Source: a virus (taxonomy: Duplodnaviria > Caudoviricetes). Taken from it: a stretch of DNA of 64,000 nucleotides. The notes under the pieces were generated by a model. It did not search any database. It saw only the letters and a list, made by a program, of their open reading frames with translations, and was not told the DNA's origin. The first letter of the stretch is position 1. Each line of letters begins with the position of its first letter. Positions 40,413-64,000 of this stretch are shown here, piece by piece. The position numbers and the translations under genes are program-made. The stretch spans positions 29,417-93,416 of the IMG/VR virus record IMGVR_UViG_3300032305_002044; one strand, given 5' to 3'.

Positions 40413-40580
40413 ATGAAACGTGCTTTTGAAGAAAGTCTTGAACGCGACTATCGTCAAGCAGGCCTAACCGCAGAAACCGTTCAGCGCATAACTGAGTGGA
40501 TTCAAAAGGCGGAGAAGTCTAACCCAGAATGTAAGTGCACTAACTGCAGTTGCGGTAAGTCAGAGGAAGCAAATGATTAA
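40413..40580 (+). CDS. 55-aa hypothetical with CxCxxCxC
   Basis: MKRAFEESLERDYRQ...ECKCTNCSCGKSEEAND; fills the gap; not in the track. Confidence 0.6.
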   Translation: MKRAFEESLERDYRQAGLTAETVQRITEWIQKAEKSNPECKCTNCSCGKSEEAND

Positions 40581-41268
40581 TGTTAGCGAGTTACCTGTAC
40601 GGCGTAAGTCGTGGTTAACGATTGCTAATGTTCCTGCAAACCGCAGGGGCTGGGAGTTATCAGACTGCAAAGAGGTATCTGCGCAAGACTTAAAGCTTGT
40701 ATCCAATTGGATACGTAAGGTTAAGTCTGGTGATGTGATTCGTGCAGATGGTAAACCTATTTGTGGCAAAGGCCTGCTACTTGTTGGAGAGCCAGGTCAC
40801 GGAAAAACTACACTTTCTTTGGCAGTTATCCAAGAGATGATGCGGACATTTGATCTAGAAGACTTTTCCGTAAACAACGGCAGGGTTCTTGTAAAGCCAT
40901 GTCACTTTGCTACCTACAACGACATTATTGAACTTAAGGGTGCATTAATGAGTCCAGATAAAACCGATGAGCAAGAACGTTTGTTTTTAGGTATGCATGG
41001 GGAGTGTGAAGATGATGCTTACAACATTCGAGTACTAGTCATTGACGACGTGGGCAAAGAGCATGTATCAGGCAGTGGTTGGAACAAAAACTTGCTTCAT
41101 CATATTTTGCGTACCAGATTTAACCTAGGACTTCCCACCATAGTTACCACAAATCTTCCTATAGATGCCTGGTCTGCTGCTTATGGCGAAGCAACTGGAT
41201 CGTTTATACACGAAGCTTTTGCCACAATTGAACTAAAATCTACTAAGGGAGACTTACGAAAAAAATGA
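40573..41268 (+). CDS. dnaC: DnaC/IstB-like helicase loader
   Basis: GEPGHGKT, LVIDDVGKE, R.....PTIVTTN. Confidence 0.9.
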   Translation: MINVSELPVRRKSWLTIANVPANRRGWELSDCKEVSAQDLKLVSNWIRKVKSGDVIRADGKPICGKGLLLVGEPGHGKTTLSLAVIQEMMRTFDLEDFSVNNGRVLVKPCHFATYNDIIELKGALMSPDKTDEQERLFLGMHGECEDDAYNIRVLVIDDVGKEHVSGSGWNKNLLHHILRTRFNLGLPTIVTTNLPIDAWSAAYGEATGSFIHEAFATIELKSTKGDLRKK

Positions 41269-41984: not shown

Positions 41985-43214
41985 ATGAACTACGAAAACC
42001 TACTACTAAACCGAGCACTAAACGAAAGAAGCATTAGTTTTCTGCTTGAACGTGGTGTGTCCGAGCCTTGGTTTTCAAACAATGAGGATCGAAGAGTCTG
42101 GTCTTTTATTAGAAACCATTACACTAACTACAACGAGGTTCCCAGCACGGAAGTTATTAAAGATAACTTTCCTACATATGTTTTTGTTGAAGTTAGTGAC
42201 TCTCTTGATTTTTTAGTAGATGAAGTAGTTAAAGCTCAACGTAAAGCTATTGTTAATAACTCTCTCAGAAAAGCCATTGAAGAAATTGAGAAGTTTGGCA
42301 ATCACGAAAACGCTGTGTCTATTTTACAGAGTGGGTTTTCTACACTTGACGATAACGGCTTTCACGCGGTTAGCGACATTGACATTACCCAGAACACCGA
42401 TCAGCGTTGGGAAGAATACCTTGAACGTAAGAACCTTCCAGGAGGTCTTCGTGGAATGGCAACAGGGTTTAGTACTATTGACCAAGCAACCAGCGGTCTA
42501 CAGCCAGGTCAGCTGATTGTAATTGTTGCGCCACCTAAAACTGGTAAGTCAACCCTTGCATTACAGATGGCTCATAACATTCATAGTGGTGGAAAGGTTC
42601 CTGTTTTTCAATCATTTGAAATGAGTAACCAAGAACAAATTACTCGTTACGATGCTATGCGTGCTCGTATTTCACACCACCGTTTAACTACAGGAACTCT
42701 TACTTCAGAAGAAGAGGCGCGTTACCAAGCAAAACTTCGTGGTATGACTATGTTGCAACATAAGTTCTGGCTTACGGATTCTGCAGGAGCTTCCGTAATT
42801 TCTGGAATATCAAATAAGATTCAGCAATTGCAGCCTAACGTTTTATTTATTGACGGTGTGTACTTGATGATGGATGAGCAGTCTGGAGAAGCAAACACTG
42901 CGCTAGCTCTCACCAACATCACACGTAGTCTTAAGCGTCTGGCACAAAAGCACCAGATTCCAATTGTTGTTACTACGCAGGCTTTGGGATGGAAAATGCG
43001 TAAGGGAAATGTAACAGTAGACTCTATTGGTTACTCTTCCTCATTCTTTCAAGATGCTGACGTTGTATTTGGTTTGCAACGTGAAGACGAAAACGTAGAC
43101 GACACTAGATTGCTAAAGGTTATGGCTAGTCGTAACTGTGGCCCTTTAGAGGTATCACTAGTATGGGATTGGAACACAGGTGAGTTCCGTGAGATTAGCA
43201 GTGATGACATGTGA
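41985..43214 (+). CDS. dnaB: DnaB-like replicative helicase
   Basis: TGF..ID..TSGLQPGQL, APPKTGKS, SFEMS, FIDGVYLM, QDAD. Confidence 0.95.
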   Translation: MNYENLLLNRALNERSISFLLERGVSEPWFSNNEDRRVWSFIRNHYTNYNEVPSTEVIKDNFPTYVFVEVSDSLDFLVDEVVKAQRKAIVNNSLRKAIEEIEKFGNHENAVSILQSGFSTLDDNGFHAVSDIDITQNTDQRWEEYLERKNLPGGLRGMATGFSTIDQATSGLQPGQLIVIVAPPKTGKSTLALQMAHNIHSGGKVPVFQSFEMSNQEQITRYDAMRARISHHRLTTGTLTSEEEARYQAKLRGMTMLQHKFWLTDSAGASVISGISNKIQQLQPNVLFIDGVYLMMDEQSGEANTALALTNITRSLKRLAQKHQIPIVVTTQALGWKMRKGNVTVDSIGYSSSFFQDADVVFGLQREDENVDDTRLLKVMASRNCGPLEVSLVWDWNTGEFREISSDDM

Positions 43215-44137
43215 ACGTAGAAGAGATGGAACGTGTCTTAGAAGACCTAGGTGTTGAATACGTAAGTTCTCGTGGGGATGAGATACAAGGCTTTTGCCCT
43301 ATGCACGAACAACGCACAGGTAAGAAAGATCGCAACCCTTCTTGGTACATAAATGCCGAGACTGGAGCTCATATATGTTTCTCGTGCGAGTACCGCGGCA
43401 ACATCATTTCCCTTACAGCAACTTTGCGTGAGTTAGACTACGACGATGCTAAGGCTTGGTTGTCTAGTGGCGGGGAACTTATGGATGCTTTTGAACGAGC
43501 AATTAGTAAACCTAAAGAAGTGTTTGAAGAGCTAGTCTACATATCTGAGGCCTCTCTAGCAGCTTTTACAGACCCTCCAGAGTATGCTCTAAAGGCACGC
43601 GGACTGACGCTAGCTGCTGCTCAGCACTTTGGTTTACGGTGGGAGCGTTCTACTGAGAGTTGGATCATCCCAATTAGAGACCCACATACAGGTAACTTAC
43701 AAGGCTGGCAGGTCAAGGCTTTTAACGGTAGGCACTTTCGCAATTACCCCGTGGGGGTAAAAAAATCCAACGGATTATTTGGCTTTCAACAATACACAGG
43801 TGGCGACATGATAGTTGTAGAGTCCCCACTAGACGTTGTACGACTTGCGTCTATAGGGATACTTGGTGGGGTAGCCGTTTATGGGGCATTAATTTCAGAC
43901 GTTCAACTGAAATACATACGTTCCGCTGATAGAATTGTAATGGCATTAGATTCCGATGAGGCTGGAACATCAGCTTCTTTTAAATTGGCTCAATTAACTA
44001 AAACTCAAAACTTTGAAGCTTGGTTTTTTGATTACTCTAATACTGACATGAAAGACGTGGGTGGTATGAGCAAGGCCGAGGTATTACTTGGCCTAGACTC
44101 CGCTAAACACTCTATTCGATATAAAACTAGTCTTTAA
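43211..44137 (+). CDS. dnaG: DNA primase (CHC2 Zn finger + TOPRIM)
   Basis: CPMH...CFSC; VVESPLD; ALDSDEAG; KDVG. Confidence 0.93.
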   Translation: MNVEEMERVLEDLGVEYVSSRGDEIQGFCPMHEQRTGKKDRNPSWYINAETGAHICFSCEYRGNIISLTATLRELDYDDAKAWLSSGGELMDAFERAISKPKEVFEELVYISEASLAAFTDPPEYALKARGLTLAAAQHFGLRWERSTESWIIPIRDPHTGNLQGWQVKAFNGRHFRNYPVGVKKSNGLFGFQQYTGGDMIVVESPLDVVRLASIGILGGVAVYGALISDVQLKYIRSADRIVMALDSDEAGTSASFKLAQLTKTQNFEAWFFDYSNTDMKDVGGMSKAEVLLGLDSAKHSIRYKTSL

Positions 44138-44620: not shown

Positions 44621-46204
44621 ATGTCATTTACTGGAACACTTTTACCGTATCAAGTAAACGCCGTAGACCGTATGTGTGAGCAAGGCTCCATGTTAGTTGC
44701 TTATGATTTAGGTTTAGGTAAAACCGTATTAACTATTGCAGCTGTTGAACGGTTAATGGATGAAGACAAAATTTATGAACCTGGATTAATAGTTTGCTTG
44801 TCTAGTCTTAAATATCAGTGGGCTAACTCCATTACAAAATTCAGTAATTCTACCTCATTAGTAATTGACGGCACTCCTAAACAACGACAAGCTCAATACG
44901 CCGAAGCAATGAACTGGGAGAATTCAGGGGTGGACTACATAATCATGAACTACGAACAGGTAGTTAATGATTGGGATTACGTATCTAAATTACCTCGCGG
45001 GTTTGTTGTTTTAGACGAAGCCACCGCTATTAAATCTTTTAAGTCTAAACGAGCTAAGCAAGTAAAAAAGTTAGCTAATGCTCCTTTTAAATTTGCTCTT
45101 ACTGGTACGCCAATTGAAAATGGTAAGCCTGAAGAGTTGTATTCAATCATGCAATTTGTAGATCAAAAAGTGCTGGGACGTTTTGATATTTTTGATTCAA
45201 CATTTATTGTTCGTAATACCTGGGGCGGTGTTGATAGATACAGAAATCTACCTACTTTACATACAAAAATGAAAGAGGCTTCCGTAAGGAAATCACAAAA
45301 AGACCCAGACGTTGCGCCATACTTACCTGACTCAATTCATAAAGAACCTATTCTTGTTTACTTTGACAGGAAAGCTGCAAAGTTGTACAGAAAAATTGTT
45401 GATGATCTAATTCAAGAATTAGACAATGCCAAAGATTTATTTGGCGGTTCTTTTAATATGCTTTCTCATTACGGGTATGCTGATAAGACAGGTAATAGAG
45501 CAGATGAGATACGCGGCAGAATTATGTCTAAAGTAGGTTGCCTTAAAATGCTTTGCTCCCATCCAGACTTAGTTAGGTTGAGCGCAGAAAGATTTCAAGA
45601 AATAGGGGACACAGGTTCTGAGTATGCTAACTACCTTCTTTTAGAAGGTTTATTAGATGGCGTTACCGCAGCCCCTAAACTAGATGCGCTAATTGAATAC
45701 GTACAAGACTTCTTAGGGCAAAGGCCAGACAATAAAGTTGTTATTTTTGCTACGTATGTAGATATGGTAAGCATGATTAAAGATAAGCTAGGAGAAGACA
45801 TTTGTCGGACCTACACAGGGCAGCTTGATGCAAAATCTAAAGAAGATAATAAAGTTGAATTTAACACTAACCCTGATGTGCGTGTTCTTATTAGTAGTGA
45901 CGCTGGGGGTTATGGTGTTGACTTGCCTGCTGCCAATTTACTGGTTAATTATGACATGCCATGGTCGTCTGGCCTTGCGACGCAAAGAAACGGTCGAATA
46001 AAAAGAGCGTCTTCTACTTGGGAGACTATTGTTATCCAAGATTTTTTAGTATCTGGGTCTATTGAAGTACGCCAGCATGAAGCTCTACAACAGAAAAACT
46101 CAATAGCCAATGCTGTTATGGACGGTGAAGGTATTGATGATAAGGGTGGAGTAGACCTAACTTTAGGGTCTTTAAAGTCATTTATTCAAGGAACATCTGT
46201 TTAA
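44621..46204 (+). CDS. SNF2-family helicase
   Basis: LLPYQ, DLGLGKT, LDEA, LTGTPIEN, GGYGVDL, QRNGRI.R. Confidence 0.93.
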   Translation: MSFTGTLLPYQVNAVDRMCEQGSMLVAYDLGLGKTVLTIAAVERLMDEDKIYEPGLIVCLSSLKYQWANSITKFSNSTSLVIDGTPKQRQAQYAEAMNWENSGVDYIIMNYEQVVNDWDYVSKLPRGFVVLDEATAIKSFKSKRAKQVKKLANAPFKFALTGTPIENGKPEELYSIMQFVDQKVLGRFDIFDSTFIVRNTWGGVDRYRNLPTLHTKMKEASVRKSQKDPDVAPYLPDSIHKEPILVYFDRKAAKLYRKIVDDLIQELDNAKDLFGGSFNMLSHYGYADKTGNRADEIRGRIMSKVGCLKMLCSHPDLVRLSAERFQEIGDTGSEYANYLLLEGLLDGVTAAPKLDALIEYVQDFLGQRPDNKVVIFATYVDMVSMIKDKLGEDICRTYTGQLDAKSKEDNKVEFNTNPDVRVLISSDAGGYGVDLPAANLLVNYDMPWSSGLATQRNGRIKRASSTWETIVIQDFLVSGSIEVRQHEALQQKNSIANAVMDGEGIDDKGGVDLTLGSLKSFIQGTSV

Positions 46205-46259
46205 GTAATACACCTTGTCTATCTGAACCTTAACTTTTTTTATGTTAGGGTGGAAATGT

Positions 46260-46733
46260 ATGTTAGACAGAACCAAACGTCTGACCACCGCTATTGCGCT
46301 TCTTACAAGTTTACTTGTATCGCTACCAGTAGCCCAGGGTCAGGCTAATGCTAATGAAATGCAGACAAAAATCGAAACAAAAGTTGCGGTTAAATCGATC
46401 GTAGCTATTGCTAAACAATATATCGGAACCCCGTACTGTCGGGGTGGGCACACTTCCAGATGCTTTGACTGCTCTGGATTCACACAATACGTATATAACC
46501 AACAGGGCATTAAGTTGCCACCGATTGTACACAGTCAGTATCGTATTGCTACAAAAATTACTGCGGCAAAAGCAAAGCCAGGAGACCTAGTGTTTTTTAT
46601 AACTAGGCAGGGTTACGCTTACCATGTAGGAATCTATGTAGGTAATGGAAAGGTTATACATTCCCCTAAACGTGGTCATCACGTTCGAATAGAAAGTATC
46701 TGGACGTCTAACGTCCGCTATGGTAGAGTTTAA
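46260..46733 (+). CDS. secreted NlpC/P60 cell-wall peptidase
   Basis: Signal peptide; YIGTPY..GG....FDCSG, PGDLVFF, HVGIY, IHS. Confidence 0.93.
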   Translation: MLDRTKRLTTAIALLTSLLVSLPVAQGQANANEMQTKIETKVAVKSIVAIAKQYIGTPYCRGGHTSRCFDCSGFTQYVYNQQGIKLPPIVHSQYRIATKITAAKAKPGDLVFFITRQGYAYHVGIYVGNGKVIHSPKRGHHVRIESIWTSNVRYGRV

Positions 46734-46742
46734 TTTCTACCA

Positions 46743-46821
46743 GGGGCAGATTTGGTATCGACTAGCATTAACTCCGCACGTCGGAAGTGTTAGGAATCGA
46801 GTTCGACTCTCGACTGCTCCA
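46743..46821 (+). ncRNA. ssrA: minimal tmRNA (ssrA-like): tRNA-like domain only
   Basis: Acceptor GGGGCAG/CTGCTCC with G3-U70 and A73; stemless D-loop ATTTGGTATCGA; P2 CTAGCATT/AGTGTTAG capped by TCCG-CACGT-CGGA; GAA linker; T-arm TCGAG-TTCGACT-CTCGA. CCA is not fully encoded. Confidence 0.85.
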
Positions 46822-46900
46822 CTTGCAAGTAGAAGCAAGACCAGACATAGCAACTTTCTTTAGGTAAACTTAATACGTTGCCTTTAGGAGAGAACTGGCA

Positions 46901-48331
46901 TTGAAACCCTTTAAAATTTTTGCTGCCTTAGTGTTTGCATTTGCTTTTCCATTAAGCGCTATGCCCGCACAGGCTGCAGTTGATGTGCCTTGCGATACTT
47001 ATTCTTGGACTGGTGAAGACGACACTGCACACCAGATGGCTTTGCCATTTTCATTACCTATAGGTGATACTACATACGACACTACGTATGTGACTACTAA
47101 TGGAACGCTTACCTTTGGAACCGCTGATGCTAACTTTAGCTCGTATCCAAATACCCCATCCATTTCTTTAGCGGGGTATGATTGTGTAACTTTTGGTGAG
47201 GGTGACAGTTTAAGTTATGGCGTTAACAGCACAGGTTTTTGTGTGCTTTGGAAGGTTCGTCCTTACCCACAATCAATTGGGGCAATAACTGAAATTAAGT
47301 TAACTGTAGACATAGCCAGGTACCCTTCATGGTCAGGAACTGTAGAGACCACGGGTTGGCTACCTGCAGATTTACGGCGGGGTATTCGATTTGCCCCTAA
47401 CACAGACGTAGTAACCATCTCTGAAGCCTTTACGGTTAACGGTGGGCGCCCTGTAGAGATGCAGTCATGCTGGGATGGGTCTGTTATTCCTTTGACCTCT
47501 ACGTGCCCTCCAGAGCCTCCTCCAGGCCAATGCTGGGACGGTACTACCGTAGCTTGGAATCAAACTTGCCCGCCTGTACCGCCTGATACACAGTGTTGGG
47601 ATGGATCATGGATTACTTGGAGTCAGACTTGTCCCGTGGAACCTACTCCCACCCCAACACCAGAGCCAACACTAACACCCACGCCAGAGCCAACACTAAG
47701 CCCTGAACCAACGCCATCCCCAGAACCAACCCCAGAGCCGTCCCCAAGCCCTTCAGAAACTTCTTCACCTACACCAACTCCTGAGCCAACGCCCACAGAT
47801 ATAGCAACCCCACTACCAGAACCCACACCCGAAGAAACACTTACACCAACTCCAGAGCCAACTCTAGAACCTGTGCCAAGTCTTAGCCCTGATCCAGTCG
47901 AAAACGTTGAACCAACTCTGGACCCAGAGCCAACGCCAATACCTGAACCTACTCAAAACGTGACACCTGAGCCTCCGACTACGGTAACTGAATTACTTAC
48001 TCAGTATACCCCTGATGAAGCTATTCCTTTTGATGTGCTTATGGCTTCGGGTATTGATTACAGTGAGTTGCCGCCAGATCAACCCGTTACTTTAGAAAAC
48101 GGTGTAGTACTTACCGCTGCAGTAGCGGATGCACTTCAAATTTTTGAAGACCCCTCTGAATTGCTGGCAACAGTATTCACAGACCCAGGAAAAGCTCTTA
48201 AAGCTATTTCCAACGTAGGCGCAGATTTACCTGCGGATGTACGTAAAACCGCTCAACAAGGCACAGTAGCTGTGGTTCTTGTTGGTCAAGTCATTGTTGG
48301 CGGAGTTACCGCCCAATTAATTAGGAGATAA
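46901..48331 (+). CDS. membrane-anchored surface protein: signal peptide, NIDO-like domain, 3x CWDG repeats, P/T/E stalk, C-terminal TM
   Basis: AGGAG RBS with TTG start; DD.....LPF...GDTTY...YVTTNG.LTFG; CWDGx8CP x3; (PTPEPT)n. Confidence 0.75.
   Translation: MKPFKIFAALVFAFAFPLSAMPAQAAVDVPCDTYSWTGEDDTAHQMALPFSLPIGDTTYDTTYVTTNGTLTFGTADANFSSYPNTPSISLAGYDCVTFGEGDSLSYGVNSTGFCVLWKVRPYPQSIGAITEIKLTVDIARYPSWSGTVETTGWLPADLRRGIRFAPNTDVVTISEAFTVNGGRPVEMQSCWDGSVIPLTSTCPPEPPPGQCWDGTTVAWNQTCPPVPPDTQCWDGSWITWSQTCPVEPTPTPTPEPTLTPTPEPTLSPEPTPSPEPTPEPSPSPSETSSPTPTPEPTPTDIATPLPEPTPEETLTPTPEPTLEPVPSLSPDPVENVEPTLDPEPTPIPEPTQNVTPEPPTTVTELLTQYTPDEAIPFDVLMASGIDYSELPPDQPVTLENGVVLTAAVADALQIFEDPSELLATVFTDPGKALKAISNVGADLPADVRKTAQQGTVAVVLVGQVIVGGVTAQLIRR
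47640..47980 (+). repeat. Pro-Thr-Glu low-complexity coding repeat
   Basis: Repeated ccagagccaac units encoding PEPT. Confidence 0.85.
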
Positions 48332-50365: not shown

Positions 50366-50416
50366 GCCACTGGCGGTAGGTTCCCCCCTTTCCTACCGCT
50401 AGTGGCTCTTAAGGGG
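50366..50416 (+). promoter_or_regulatory. 15-bp hairpin whose loop is complementary to the polA SD (possible pseudoknot operator)
   Basis: Stem 50366-50380/50392-50406; loop TTCCCCCCTTT; SD AAGGGG at 50411-50416. Confidence 0.55.
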
Positions 50417-50422
50417 CATGCT

Positions 50423-52402
50423 ATGAATATTATTACTACACTTGACCAGTTAAATGAAATGGTCGCACATTATTTAACGCAAGATGCTTTTGCATTTGAC
50501 GTAGAAACCGTTGGCGATAACCGTGGGGTCACTCCAATTAACGAAGTTTTATGGATTACTTTTGCTACCCACGGTCGGTGCGATGTAATCCCAATGGGCC
50601 ACCCTAACGGTGACTTTGTAGAGGAAGTGTTTCCACTTACAGGCCAAGGTGAGAAGCGAGTAGAAGCAGGTCTTACCGCTCGTCCTAGTGATTATTCACG
50701 GGATAAGAAAAAAGCCACTAAAAAGTTTGGTCCTCCTCCATCCCAGCTGTATCCTAACGAGGTTTTTAAGGCTTTGCGCCCTATTCTATTTAATAGTAAC
50801 CTTCTTACAATAGGTCATAACCTAATCTTTGATTTGACATCTATCGCAAAATACTATAAAGGAGAAGTTCCCACAGGCCCATACTTTGACACTATGATTG
50901 CGTCTTTTATTAGCGACAACCGTAATAAAAATAAGTGTGGCCTTGATGCTTGTCTTAAGCGTGAGTTTGGATACGAGATGGTTAAAGGCGTAGGTAAAGA
51001 AGTAGAGAAGTATTCGTTTACCGAAGTTGCTAAGTATGCTTTTCTTGATGCTAAATACACTTTCTTATTGTGGAAAGCCCTAGCCCCGAAAATTAAAGAG
51101 TCAGACCTTGACGTTATTATGAGTTTAGAAATGGACGTGCTTCAAGTTTTATGTGCTATGAAGCTTGAGGGTGCCCCAATAGATGTAGCTGAGTTAGAGG
51201 CTCTTGATGCGCAATTACGTATTGACATTGAAACCGCTAGGGCAGAGATATTTCGTATTGCTGAACGCCCGTTTAATATTAACTCTAACCAAGAGAAGCA
51301 GCTATTACTGTATGGTTCTAAGGATGAGGGCGGACGTGGTCTTAAGCCTAAGATTCTTACTACCGCTGGAAACCGTAAAGCTGAACAAGGTCTAGAACTT
51401 ACTTACGCAGATTACTCCGTATCAGCCGAGGCTTTAGAGGCCTACAAACTTGCTGACCCTTTAGTAGATGCTATGCTTACCTATGCTGATCTTAACAAGT
51501 TAAGTACTACATATGTAGTGCCATACTTAGGCGGAGAAGTAGTTCGAACTACAGGAGGAAAGGAAAAACGTGAACATAAAGACTCCTTACTCATTAATGG
51601 GCGTATACACTGTGACTTCATCCAGCATGGCGCGGAGACTGGTCGCTTTAGTAGCCGTAACCCTAATCTACAAAATGTTCCTGCCCCTCACACGGCTCAC
51701 GGTAAAGCGATTAGGAACCTCTTTTATGCACCGCCAGGTTTTTCGTTGGTCGTGGCGGACTACTCTCAAATTGAACCGCGTGTTATTGCGTCAATGTCAA
51801 AAGACCCTATTATGATGGAGAACTATCTACGGGGTGGAGATATCTATACCACTGTAGGTGACACTATGGGGGTAGATCGTAAAGCAGGTAAGGTGCTGGT
51901 TCTTGCTATGGCTTACGGCGTGGGTCCAGATAAAATCTCCCGTCAGATTGGGTGCTCTATTAATGAAGCCCGCGACTTACTTTCTAGATTTGGCTCTGAA
52001 TTCTCATCCGTAAGTTCTTATAGGATAAAAGTTATTGGGGCAACTAAAGTTAACACCCCGCCTTATGTAACCACGGTACTAGGCCGCAAACGGTACCTTC
52101 CAGAGATTTTATCTAGTGATCCATTCTTAAGGTCTGCTGCAGAGCGCCAGTCTTTTAACACCCGTATTCAAGGCTCCGCTGCTGACATTATTAAGTTGGC
52201 TATGGTGCGTGCGTACAAAAGATTGCCAGAGGGTGCTAAGCTCCTCTTGACAGTGCACGACGAGTTGGTTACGCTGACTCCAGATGATAAGGTTGATGAC
52301 ACCGTGTCAGCAATCCGTGAGGCAATGGAAGGTATTGATTTGTTATCTATACCTTTAGTAGCTGACATAAAAGTAGTAGACCGTTGGGGAGAAGCAAAAT
52401 GA
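50423..52402 (+). CDS. polA: family A DNA polymerase (3'-5' exo + pol)
   Basis: FDVET, HN..FD, YA..DA, TGRFSSRNPNLQN, DYSQIE, K...L...YG, QGSAAD, VHDE. Confidence 0.97.
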   Translation: MNIITTLDQLNEMVAHYLTQDAFAFDVETVGDNRGVTPINEVLWITFATHGRCDVIPMGHPNGDFVEEVFPLTGQGEKRVEAGLTARPSDYSRDKKKATKKFGPPPSQLYPNEVFKALRPILFNSNLLTIGHNLIFDLTSIAKYYKGEVPTGPYFDTMIASFISDNRNKNKCGLDACLKREFGYEMVKGVGKEVEKYSFTEVAKYAFLDAKYTFLLWKALAPKIKESDLDVIMSLEMDVLQVLCAMKLEGAPIDVAELEALDAQLRIDIETARAEIFRIAERPFNINSNQEKQLLLYGSKDEGGRGLKPKILTTAGNRKAEQGLELTYADYSVSAEALEAYKLADPLVDAMLTYADLNKLSTTYVVPYLGGEVVRTTGGKEKREHKDSLLINGRIHCDFIQHGAETGRFSSRNPNLQNVPAPHTAHGKAIRNLFYAPPGFSLVVADYSQIEPRVIASMSKDPIMMENYLRGGDIYTTVGDTMGVDRKAGKVLVLAMAYGVGPDKISRQIGCSINEARDLLSRFGSEFSSVSSYRIKVIGATKVNTPPYVTTVLGRKRYLPEILSSDPFLRSAAERQSFNTRIQGSAADIIKLAMVRAYKRLPEGAKLLLTVHDELVTLTPDDKVDDTVSAIREAMEGIDLLSIPLVADIKVVDRWGEAK

Positions 52403-52860: not shown

Positions 52861-53233
52861 TTGGTGGGCCGACAAATTGGGCGCTCCAGTTCCAGCAAGC
52901 AGGCCTTCTCCTACGCCTCCGTACACGCCTCCAGCGCCTGTTCCTTACAACCCTGTACCCCAACCTCAGATGCCTCCTCAAGAGGCTCCTAGGCTGCCTC
53001 AGAGCGCTACAACAGCTAGTAGGTGCCCTGGTTGCAGTAGCGGGAATTATGGCTCAGTAACTCCTGAGTCCAAGGCTAGATGTTATGACTGTGGTTATCC
53101 AGTAGTTCAATCAGGCAGTGGTATGGGTAAGGGTGTTTCCCAGCAAGGTGGCGGAGGACCAGCTACTCCAGCTAGACAAATTAGTACTGCTAATAATTTT
53201 AACCCGCAAACTATCATTGGAAAGATTGAATAA
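52850..53233 (+). CDS. Pro-rich Zn-ribbon protein
   Basis: AGGAG RBS; CPGC...CYDCG. Confidence 0.75.
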   Translation: MSGNWWADKLGAPVPASRPSPTPPYTPPAPVPYNPVPQPQMPPQEAPRLPQSATTASRCPGCSSGNYGSVTPESKARCYDCGYPVVQSGSGMGKGVSQQGGGGPATPARQISTANNFNPQTIIGKIE

Positions 53234-54291
53234 TGGACTTAGACCTTGCTAAAGCAATTGCTAAACTAAATAAAAAATTTGGCTCAGAGATGATCGTCCT
53301 TGGTACAGATATTAAAGATGATGTATTAGGACGCATGACTACAGGATCACTTGCAGTAGACATGATTCTTGGTGGAGGTTTTCCTGTTAACCAATGGCAC
53401 GAAATTGTAGGCGAAGCGTCTAATGGTAAGACAGCACTTGCCCTTAAAACCGTAGCCGCTAATCAGGCTCGCGACCCAGAGTTCACCACAGTTTGGGTAG
53501 CCGCGGAAACTTGGGTACCACAATATGCGCAAATGTGTGGTATAGACCTATCTCGTGTGTATGTAGTTGCTACTAACGTTATGGAAGAAGCCTATGAAGC
53601 CGTCATTGAATTAGTAGAAACTAAATCTATTGACTGCGTTGTAATTGATTCCCTTCCAGCTTTAGTCCCTATGGCAGAAGATGACAAGAACATGGATGAG
53701 GCTACTGTTGGTCGTGGTGCGTTACTTACAGGTAAGTTTTTCCGTAAGGTTGGTAAAGCATCGCGCCGTTCACTTACTGAGTCCGAACGTCCTTTTATTG
53801 GAATCATCATTAACCAGTACCGCATGAAAATTGGCGTTATGTATGGTGATCCTCGCACCACCCCAGGTGGAGAGGCCAAGAACTACGCATTCTTTACTCG
53901 TCTAGAGGTTAAGCGTGACGAATGGATTGAGGCTGGTACAGGACAGGAAAAACGTAAGGTTGGTCAGACTATTAAGGTACGTACCATTAAGAACAAGTCA
54001 GCCCCACCAGCACAGGTAGCGTATGTAGACTTCTACTTTAGTGACGGCGGAAATTGCTACGCAGGTGAATTTGACTACGCTAAAGAGATTGTTGCTCTTG
54101 GCATTATCTACAAGATTATTACCCGTGCAGGTGCCTATTACAGTTACGGTGATCGTAAGTGGCTAGGTGGAGATGCTGTGGTAAACTCTATTAGGGAAGA
54201 GGTTGACCTCAAAGAGGCTCTAGATCGAGATGTACGCAGAGTTGTACGTCCAGAAGCTAGCGCAACTTACGAGGTGGCTGATGCGCTCTGA
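53233..54291 (+). CDS. recA: RecA recombinase
   Basis: TGSLAVD..LGGG, GEASNGKT, VVIDS, INQ.R.KIGVMYGDP.TTPGG. Confidence 0.96.
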   Translation: MDLDLAKAIAKLNKKFGSEMIVLGTDIKDDVLGRMTTGSLAVDMILGGGFPVNQWHEIVGEASNGKTALALKTVAANQARDPEFTTVWVAAETWVPQYAQMCGIDLSRVYVVATNVMEEAYEAVIELVETKSIDCVVIDSLPALVPMAEDDKNMDEATVGRGALLTGKFFRKVGKASRRSLTESERPFIGIIINQYRMKIGVMYGDPRTTPGGEAKNYAFFTRLEVKRDEWIEAGTGQEKRKVGQTIKVRTIKNKSAPPAQVAYVDFYFSDGGNCYAGEFDYAKEIVALGIIYKIITRAGAYYSYGDRKWLGGDAVVNSIREEVDLKEALDRDVRRVVRPEASATYEVADAL

Positions 54292-54613: not shown

Positions 54614-54915
54614 ACGTAGAGAACTGGCGTGCAGACGCTAAGTGTAAAGGTATGGATACGGAGCTATGGTTCCCTCCCAGAGAAAAAGAACTTTACAAAT
54701 CTATTGCGGATGTTTCTAAAGGAATATGTTTTGGTAGAGACGGTCGTCCAGAATGCCCTGTTCGTAAAGAGTGCCTGATGTACTCAGAAACTATGAACGA
54801 GCAGTATGGTATCTGGGGCGGCTTAAGTCATAGAGAAAGAAATGCGTTAAAGCGTAAGGCTGAACGTAACGGAATGACCCTAAAAGAATGGGTAGAAAGC
54901 GGTAGAAAAAAATGA
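54592..54915 (+). CDS. whiB: WhiB-family transcription factor
   Basis: WR.DAKC....ELWFP...C.G......CPVRKEC.......YGIWGG.S..ER. Confidence 0.92.
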   Translation: MFVRDPLDVENWRADAKCKGMDTELWFPPREKELYKSIADVSKGICFGRDGRPECPVRKECLMYSETMNEQYGIWGGLSHRERNALKRKAERNGMTLKEWVESGRKK

Positions 54916-63210: not shown

Positions 63211-63777
63211 ATGGATTTTAATGGAGCAAAAGACTTAAGTCAAGCCAACAAAGACGAACCAATGATTCGTGTATTGGTATGCCGTAATTGTAAGACTATT
63301 GAGGAACTGCCAGATTATGATGGCGACCCAGCTACTGACACTTTATTAAATATATTAGTATCTAAGCACCAAAAGCCTGTAGAGCATATCGGTTTGCTTA
63401 TGAAGTTTCCGTTTAAATACTGGGCAGTGCCTAAAATCCAAAAAGAGATCATTAAGCAAATTCGTGGCGGCTCTGAAGGTTTAGATGTATTCCAGACTAA
63501 ATTTTATGAGACCAAAAACCAATTTGCTGAAGACGCCATGGCTTGCTATTCAGATCATTTGCGCCCCAAAGGTCAGTGTCCAGACTACAAGTCAGAGAAG
63601 AAATTGCTTAAACCTGACACAGATGCTGACCGTAAAGAGGCTGGCCTTGAAAAGGCGGGCAAAACTGGCCCTAAAGTATACTTATGTGACTTCTGCCCCG
63701 TAAAATCCTTTAATATGCAGAAGTCTAACGCCGAGATACAAATCTTCATCGAAACGAATAGTATTTGTCATAGTTAA
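63211..63777 (+). CDS. conserved Cys-containing hypothetical protein (C-terminus probably chimeric)
   Basis: TGG-TAAAAT 6 nt before the ATG; CRNC...YLCDFCPV; the last ~13 codons fall in AT-rich foreign sequence. Confidence 0.7.
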   Translation: MDFNGAKDLSQANKDEPMIRVLVCRNCKTIEELPDYDGDPATDTLLNILVSKHQKPVEHIGLLMKFPFKYWAVPKIQKEIIKQIRGGSEGLDVFQTKFYETKNQFAEDAMACYSDHLRPKGQCPDYKSEKKLLKPDTDADRKEAGLEKAGKTGPKVYLCDFCPVKSFNMQKSNAEIQIFIETNSICHS

Positions 63778-64000
63778 GATATGTGTCATATTATTGACAC
63801 AATCTGTAGTTATAACACCATCTGAAATTTTATTAAATAAAGGGTTTAAATCTAAATCAAATATAAATCTTGAGTGTCCTGAAGACGAAATAGAGTCTAA
63901 AGAACTACCAAAATAGATATCCGTAATTGGGTTTCTACCCGTATTAACAAATTTATTGCTAATAATAGTGTTATTTTTGCTAAAATATGACCTATGTGTT
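63737..64000 (-). other. AT-rich foreign segment carrying a fragment of a minus-strand ORF
   Basis: Abrupt GC drop; open frame THRSYFSKNNTIISNKFVNTGRNPITDIYFG...SRFIFDLDL...THILTMTNTIRFDEDL, opposite in orientation to the phage genes. Confidence 0.65.

Follow-up and report, generated by a model that had tools for sequence, protein, structure and literature searches.

The question raised by this locus is whether a phage can carry, as a working gene, a tmRNA cut down to its tRNA-like domain (TLD), and what such an RNA might do to its host. Bacteria rescue their ribosomes mainly by trans-translation, which in mycobacteria is also a drug target, and a natural, virus-encoded RNA of 79 nt that engages this pathway would be a compact genetic tool and would offer a way into how phages deal with the quality control of their hosts. 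In the searchable literature (open-access papers and preprints), the phage TLD-only tmRNA is treated as a single curiosity, that of mycobacteriophage DS6A. An earlier note, drawn up from the letters alone, had proposed an element of this type in a 64,000-nt stretch of an IMG/VR virus record; this whole stretch is called the window below, and coordinates are those of the window unless another record is named. Here, we describe a large, covarying and almost exclusively viral family, in which the inner module is conserved and alanine identity does not vary and of which the window instance is a clean example in a freshwater actinophage.

The Rfam tmRNA model (RF00023) matches positions 46743–46824 (+) with 56.7 bits (gathering score 47, E 1.3e-19), the sole Rfam match within the 64-kb window, and the alignment runs end to end through the model (positions 1–374), with 308 internal positions reduced to 16 nt. 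R1, a covariance model made from family sequences with DS6A left out of its building, gives the element 79.3 bits. Together with the fold, both models place the mini-tmRNA (TLD-only tmRNA) gene at 46743..46821 on the plus strand, 79 nt from G1 to discriminator A79, and the features that the earlier note had described for this interval agree with the minimum-free-energy fold. The acceptor stem of 7 bp (element positions 1–7/72–78) is formed by GGGGCAG (46743..46749, +) and CUGCUCC, which together with the discriminator A occupies 46814..46821 (+; fold and family alignment); G3 (46745) pairs with U at 46818, making G3-U76 of the element the equivalent of G3-U70. The D-loop (AUUUGGUAUCGA, 46750..46761, +) is 12 nt long, has no D-stem and carries the tmRNA-type GG...UCGA motif in the RF00023 alignment, the fold and the family alignment alike. 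It is followed by the P2 module (46762..46793, +; fold and family covariation), in which an 8-bp helix (46762–46769 with 46786–46793, element positions 20–27/44–51) encloses an AAC bulge (46770–46772) and a hairpin with a 4-bp stem (46773–46776 with 46782–46785, element positions 31–34/40–43) and a CACGU loop (46777–46781), all on the plus strand. The 3-nt linker GAA (46794..46796, +; GAC in the consensus of the family alignment) makes up, with G51 (46793), the conserved GGA(C) core 5′ of the T-arm (46797..46813, +), itself a 5-bp stem (element positions 55–59/67–71) with a 7-nt UUCGACU loop. After the discriminator at 46821 comes CUU, and CCA is not encoded.

Both the 5′ and the 3′ half of the TLD are present with perfect pairing. 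The features of alanine identity (7-bp acceptor stem, G3-U70, discriminator A73) stand beside those of the TLD core, namely the stemless D-loop (GG...UCGAC), P2a, the GGA(C) linker and a T-arm with a GUUCGAnUC loop, and the model match and the fold thereby confirm the proposal of a phage-encoded TLD-only tmRNA with alanine identity elements. What is absent is the mRNA-like domain with its resume codon, tag reading frame and stop codon, where 16 nt take the place of 308 model positions, and pseudoknots PK1–PK4, in whose stead the fold has a single 4-bp hairpin; the P2 module stands in for PK1–4 and the tag reading frame together. Throughout the family, P2 comprises 6–9 bp followed by a 3–4-nt A-rich 5′ bulge (AAAG, AAG, AAA, AAC) and an inner hairpin with a 3–4-bp helix and a 4–5-nt loop (CACG, CAUG, CAAG), a pattern of which the window module (8 bp, AAC, 4 bp, CACGU) is typical; its hairpin also resembles that of DS6A. 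The 16-nt segment with a 4-bp hairpin that the earlier note had seen in place of pseudoknots and tag ORF is present, and judged by the family alignment it is a conserved module of A-rich bulge plus short hairpin and not filler. A sub-group of mini-tmRNAs of 93–95 nt (L010:4730-4824, L042:9512-9606, L044:13747-13839) has a longer inner hairpin, in which a CAUCAUCAU-type repeat replaces the usual 4-bp hairpin.

Gene finders differ in what they make of the element. ARAGORN never called it, be it in the window, in the whole phage or at 67 loci of the family, reported no tag peptide at it and found no tRNA in either window or phage, while Infernal with Rfam passes the curated threshold, so that the expectation that standard finders may miss the element held for the first tool and failed for the second. 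With the element and its flanks as query, blastn matched none of 50,697 phage records. Two other identities were considered and rejected: a tRNA-Ala, since the fold has no anticodon arm and no D-stem and ARAGORN calls no tRNA, and a mitochondrial tmRNA (RF02544), since the record is viral and RF00023 is the match kept by Rfam clan competition. The E-value and the membership in a covarying family take the element beyond chance, and we regard its identity as almost certain: a phage gene, in our reading a functional one, for a tmRNA cut down to its tRNA-like domain.

Close relatives of the phage show how the element fares when the surrounding sequence changes. In L031 (87.5 kb, ~90% identical, same gene order), the element differs by A22-to-G and G45-to-A in stems, where the pair is kept in both cases, and by C37-to-T in the hairpin loop. 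In L023, neighbouring genes are down to ~71% identity versus 96.7% over the element, whose changes are confined to the hairpin loop. Contigs of 22–52 kb that other studies obtained from metagenomes of freshwater and lake water are ~92–95% alike over this region, and their only variants within the element are at one bulge position (46772) and two loop positions (46779 and 46781). Both L031 and L023 have a tRNA-Asn (GUU) directly 3′ of the mini-tmRNA (L031:5226-5317, L023:93-196), which is deleted in the window: alignment with the relatives marks 46822..46853 (+) as a trailer plus deletion scar at the site of this tRNA, of which the last few bases are left next to an intact mini-tmRNA in a phage with no tRNA gene. 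At the same spot, X5 has a joint of 103 extra letters and X7 a loose end, and the extra sequence of both is consistent with a tRNA-Asn there. Covariation in the family (see below), the conservation of 96.7% against ~71% and the retention of the element despite loss of the tRNA-Asn together indicate purifying selection, in line with the earlier view that the intact pairing reflects selection and not decay.

The source record (93,416 bp, ~43% GC) is an IMG/VR virus with a CheckV completeness of 98%. Its first 100 bases recur at 93050 (only those 100 bases were compared), which implies a terminal direct repeat of ~367 bp, at 63634–64000 of the window (93050–93416 of the record) and at 1–367 of the record; IMG/VR classes the same record as linear without end repeats. 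The element sits in the replication module, with a DnaC-like loader (40573–41268), DnaB (41985–43214), a primase (43211–44137), an SNF2 helicase (44621–46204) and an NlpC/P60 peptidase of 163 aa (46242..46733, +; Pfam PF00877, E 1.2e-27) on one side and an unannotated 476-aa ORF (46901–48331), PolA (50402–52402) and RecA (53233–54291) on the other. The 476-aa ORF has a hydrophobic, signal-peptide-like N-terminus and no Pfam or PHROG match; its counterpart has 564 aa in L031 and is missing in L023, which makes the slot 3′ of the element a variable one. The nearest cultured phages are the Streptomyces phages BRock, LuckySocke and Alone3, with 37–40% amino-acid identity and the same gene order, and none of the three has an annotated RNA gene at the position of the element.

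Regarding the host, the phage has two WhiB genes (54625–54849, +, and 50–259, −; 58.7 and 51.9 bits), and among 14 control genomes WhiB was found in the actinobacterial one only, which identifies the host as an actinobacterium. Taken together with the ~43% GC and the close lake and freshwater contigs, a low-GC freshwater actinobacterium is a reasonable inference. A search with the NlpC/P60 protein against 401 Actinomycetota genomes, some of them unpublished, found homologues in 277 at no more than 53% identity, which does not resolve the host further. With a host that is probably of the low-GC freshwater type, Mycobacterium smegmatis, which had been suggested as the test host, would be a mere surrogate.

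The NlpC/P60 stop codon lies at 46731–46733, which leaves 9 nt to the element and not the 10 nt given before. The 9-nt leader (46734..46742, +; alignment with the relatives) is presumed to be an RNase P substrate leader, and its last 8 nt (TTCTACCA) are identical in L031 and L023. There is no promoter or terminator between the stop codon and the element, a sigma-70 promoter scan round the element found fewer sites than in shuffled controls and no dedicated promoter or terminator, and the peptidase gene and the element are probably co-transcribed. Such an arrangement would also suit a pure processing signal, where cleavage of the polycistronic transcript by RNase P and RNase Z, 9 nt 3′ of the NlpC/P60 stop, would release a functionless RNA, as the t-elements of plant mitochondria are tRNA-shaped processing signals of like kind; the short distance to the stop codon with nothing between, the conserved leader and the position of many family members within tRNA arrays speak for it. 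For that purpose an acceptor and T-arm minihelix would suffice, yet the D-loop motif, GGA(C), P2 and G3-U/A73 are all conserved, and the element is found in unrelated gene contexts, so that we consider this explanation highly improbable.

The size of the family was assessed with two sequence patterns. Pattern 1 specifies 21 bases, taken from the 5′ strand of the acceptor, the motif of the D-loop and the T-loop, 25–55 nt apart; against our own estimate of ~1–2 chance matches, it matched 46 IMG/VR contigs. Pattern 2, in which CUCCA is fixed and the 5′ part relaxed, matched at least 119 contigs, and all 64 of the new loci that were tested scored 49–80 bits with R1. With one strict pattern matching no fewer than 119 IMG/VR contigs, the statement of the earlier note that TLD-only forms are rare does not hold for phages. 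In 596 Gb of bacterial and archaeal genomes, by comparison, pattern 1 had 21 matches; R1 upholds just 4 as real, each from a short MAG contig (4–20 kb), from which it follows that the class is essentially viral. In one MAG of the Ilumatobacteraceae (G001), a full-length tmRNA (C100:5745-6130, 86 bits) occurs next to a mini-tmRNA (C42:7537-7616, 61 bits), the latter on a 17-kb contig that is probably a phage contig binned with its host. This is the one case that allows comparison, and a recent origin of the mini form from host ssrA finds no support in it, as the two differ in acceptor stem, D-loop and T-arm.

The 37 distinct sequences matched by pattern 1 align well, and RNAalifold recovers the acceptor, P2 and T-arm helices with compensatory changes at 12 of the 19 pairs, an outcome in favour of the element in the covariation check that the earlier note had proposed for its relatives. 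In a model-based alignment (n = 38), 96.9% of the cells are paired, versus 44–54% with the 3′ partners slid, and the covariation score is 0.706 versus at most 0.11 when slid; none of 500 shuffles matched the observed values for pairing or covariation. Covariation extends to 6 of the 7 modelled P2 pairs and 4 of the 5 T-arm pairs, the latter with 100% of cells paired. The G3-U pair and CUCCA are each found in 38/38 sequences, the 3′ acceptor strand and the discriminator lying outside pattern 1, and G51 and A53 of the linker are invariant although they, too, are outside the search pattern.

Among 89 distinct sequences, the most frequent length up to the discriminator is 79 nt, which is that of the window element; GC ranges from 29 to 67% between loci, CCA is encoded in 31, and about a fifth (18) have a tRNA gene on the same strand within 300 nt. 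The mini form is the sole tmRNA-like gene in 15 larger family records. WhiB is present in 12 of 36 family records at E ≤0.001 and in 10 above the curated cut-off. Some members have unusual company. The 133-kb carrier G423 encodes a tRNA with a CUA anticodon (L029:1859-1932 and L037:1365-1438), an amber suppressor type that ARAGORN labels tRNA-Pyl, and its integrase match has an in-frame TAG inside; this phage may read TAG as a sense codon. L024 has a second, weaker TLD- or tRNA-like element (L024:4049-4119, 33 bits with R1) ~500 nt 3′ of its mini-tmRNA and straight after a tRNA-Asp gene, again with no ARAGORN call.

The same data bear on whether the element could be a non-functional relic, either an attP/ssrA fragment left by imprecise excision or a decaying pseudogene of a phage tmRNA. 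The ssrA gene is a common integration site of prophages, in which ssrA fragments occur (PMC9004378), and an attP remnant had been named beforehand as a way in which the proposal could fail. A search of this phage gave no match for a tyrosine integrase or serine recombinase, in a genome that is 98% complete with terminal repeats; an excised ssrA 3′ fragment is also at odds with the presence of both TLD halves, perfectly paired, and with the near-absence of the family from cellular chromosomes. In the family, a tyrosine integrase match occurs in only 2 of 36 records, separated from the element by over 10 kb in the one that is complete (G428), and the mini copy of the Ilumatobacteraceae MAG differs from the full-length tmRNA of that same MAG. 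With strong covariation and conservation in addition, the relic reading is effectively refuted and retains only the slightest probability.

As to function, the mini-tmRNA family probably subverts the ribosome-rescue and protein-tagging system of the host, and it is quite likely that the RNA acts on the SmpB/trans-translation pathway. The phage has no match for SmpB, peptidyl-tRNA hydrolase (Pth), RF-1/ArfB or a CCA-adding enzyme, and neither SmpB nor RF-1 was matched in any of 36 family records, which are mostly fragments; lacking an SmpB or release factor of its own, the phage must have the RNA act via host proteins. All that a TLD requires for processing by RNase P, for alanylation and for binding SmpB is retained in its sequence. 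Having no resume codon, tag frame or stop codon, the RNA cannot complete trans-translation. In the mechanism that we favour, the element would be transcribed together with the upstream helicase and NlpC/P60 genes, cut by RNase P at G1, trimmed at its 3′ end and provided with CCA by a host enzyme. The G3-U pair and discriminator A would then be recognised by host AlaRS, and the D-loop/P2/T-arm core would bind host SmpB. The mini-tmRNA would be a rival of host tmRNA in binding SmpB and, in its charged state, also in access to EF-Tu and empty A sites; during infection, this would suppress tagging by SsrA, proteolysis and the non-stop mRNA decay linked to them. We infer each of these stages, from expression and processing through charging and SmpB binding to the inhibitory effect.

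That the net effect is inhibition, with an Ala-chargeable competitor for host SmpB blocking tmRNA tagging, is the reading that we prefer, if tentatively. The idea of an SmpB decoy is not new, as it is in the literature for DS6A: according to the summaries in PMC4131195 and PMC11915505, Mao et al. (2009) found that a DS6A-like TLD-only RNA strongly inhibits E. coli tmRNA, perhaps by SmpB titration, and according to the first of these, the inhibition in E. coli was independent of chargeability. If inhibition can do without charging, as that summary has it, the invariance of G3-U/A73 is not explained by simple titration of SmpB, and it points towards a role that depends on aminoacylation. The A-rich bulge and hairpin are likewise conserved, yet have no role in the inhibition model. 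Against inhibition it also counts that several phages benefit from host trans-translation, so that blocking it is not obviously advantageous.

A different outcome on the same pathway is also conceivable, which we think somewhat less probable. The charged mini-tmRNA would enter stalled ribosomes with host SmpB and EF-Tu and take over the nascent chain, adding one Ala, or several in repeated rounds, before the ribosome is freed by ArfB or by drop-off and Pth; the phage might gain rescue capacity without the SsrA degron, for instance when host RNases cut mRNAs, or it might gain Ala-tails. The strict conservation of alanine identity across at least 119 phage contigs is what suggests such a charged, ribosome-entering RNA as opposed to a passive SmpB sponge; with host SmpB, this RNA would turn trans-translation into tag-less rescue or template-free Ala-tailing of stalled nascent chains, and the bulge and hairpin would form part of that activity. 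Charging does seem to matter, given that all 38 sequences share the AlaRS identity set (G3-U, A73), which the search left unconstrained. Peptidyl transfer to a TLD-only fragment has been observed in vitro (PMC3895274), SmpB plus a TLD fragment yields poly-alanine without mRNA (Shimizu and Ueda 2006, in the account given by PMC3929946), and jakobid TLD-only tmRNAs occur with SmpB and are thought to aid with incomplete mRNAs (PMC11915505). On the other side, release would depend wholly on the host, with no release factor, ArfB or Pth in the phage and no RF-1 match in the 36 family records, and the only in vivo test reported in the sources cited, that of the DS6A type in E. coli, resulted in inhibition and not in rescue. 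If the ribosome-entering reading were true, the phage would reprogramme host protein quality control. The family-level picture makes the choice between decoy and tag-less rescuer answerable by ordinary assays.

It is improbable, by contrast, that the RNA is a decoy for a protein other than SmpB, such as a host RNase (e.g., RNase R) or a defence nuclease or sensor directed at tRNA-like RNAs. RNase R is regulated through tmRNA and SmpB, and the conserved A-rich bulge and hairpin could be a putative protein-binding site. In staphylococcal phage infection, TLD-containing tmRNA fragments co-purify with an anti-CRISPR protein and bind RNase R and Cas10-Csm (PMC11662646). The conserved positions, however, are those by which the canonical TLD is recognised by AlaRS and SmpB, which goes beyond the needs of a generic structured decoy, and the element has no conserved protein neighbour across lineages: clustering of the ORFs within 3 kb of 37 family members gave no protein family common to more than 4 lineages.

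Among known systems, the canonical one-piece tmRNA (SsrA, RF00023) has the alanine acceptor, the stemless D-loop, P2a, the GGAC linker and the T-arm in common with the window element, which differs from it in being without the ~270–300 nt of PK1–4, resume codon, tag reading frame and stop codon and hence can neither template a degron nor terminate translation. The precedents that the earlier note had named for such a reduction, in some mitochondria and one mycobacteriophage, are on record as jakobid mitochondria and DS6A (PMC4131195, PMC11915505). The 2025 tmRNA database paper (PMC11915505) lists CDS-less tmRNAs for jakobid mitochondria and two plastids besides DS6A and notes that the jakobid forms co-occur with SmpB. 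The jakobid tmRNA (RF02544; Jacob et al. 2004) and the ~65-bp plastid forms of the Mallomonadaceae (PMC11915505) have the same TLD-only reduction as the window element; they are, however, organellar genes that replace the resident tmRNA, whereas the window form is supplied by a virus beside the full-length tmRNA of the host, which makes competition possible. Nearly identical in architecture are the engineered TLD fragments, such as that of T. thermophilus (5′ 25 nt and 3′ 34 nt joined by a UUCG loop, PDB 2CZJ). By the account in PMC3929946, TLD fragments bind SmpB, are alanylated, accept the peptide and support poly-Ala synthesis in vitro. The phage version differs from them in being natural and selected, and in its longer P2 with the conserved A-rich bulge.

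The closest counterpart is the element of DS6A (JN698994 28478-28560; tmRNA Website tmID 11587 / Phage__Mycobacterium.9), a phage listed as "TLD only" by Hudson, Lau and Williams (2014, PMC4131195); among the open-access papers and preprints searched, none describes TLD-only tmRNA as a widespread phage family. Both elements are phage-encoded and ~80 nt long, with a complete TLD, a GGGG...CUCCA acceptor with G3-U and discriminator A, no tag frame, and a P2 that ends in an A-rich bulge and a short hairpin of the CCGCACG type; both phages infect Actinobacteria, and neither element is annotated in its own record, that of DS6A being the GenBank one. DS6A is a 60.6-kb phage of M. tuberculosis from an unrelated lineage with an element of 69% GC, whereas the window phage is a freshwater phage of 93 kb and 43% GC whose replication module resembles that of Streptomyces phage BRock; the two elements differ in D-loop spacing and in acceptor pairs 5–7, and the Rfam gathering score is reached by the window element and not by that of DS6A. 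R1, which was built without DS6A, nonetheless scores the DS6A element at 65.9 bits, which places both in one kind, and the window element fits the corresponding size class of phage-borne RNAs of ~65–95 nt with the TLD halves joined by a short hairpin. It is a further member of the known but barely described DS6A kind.
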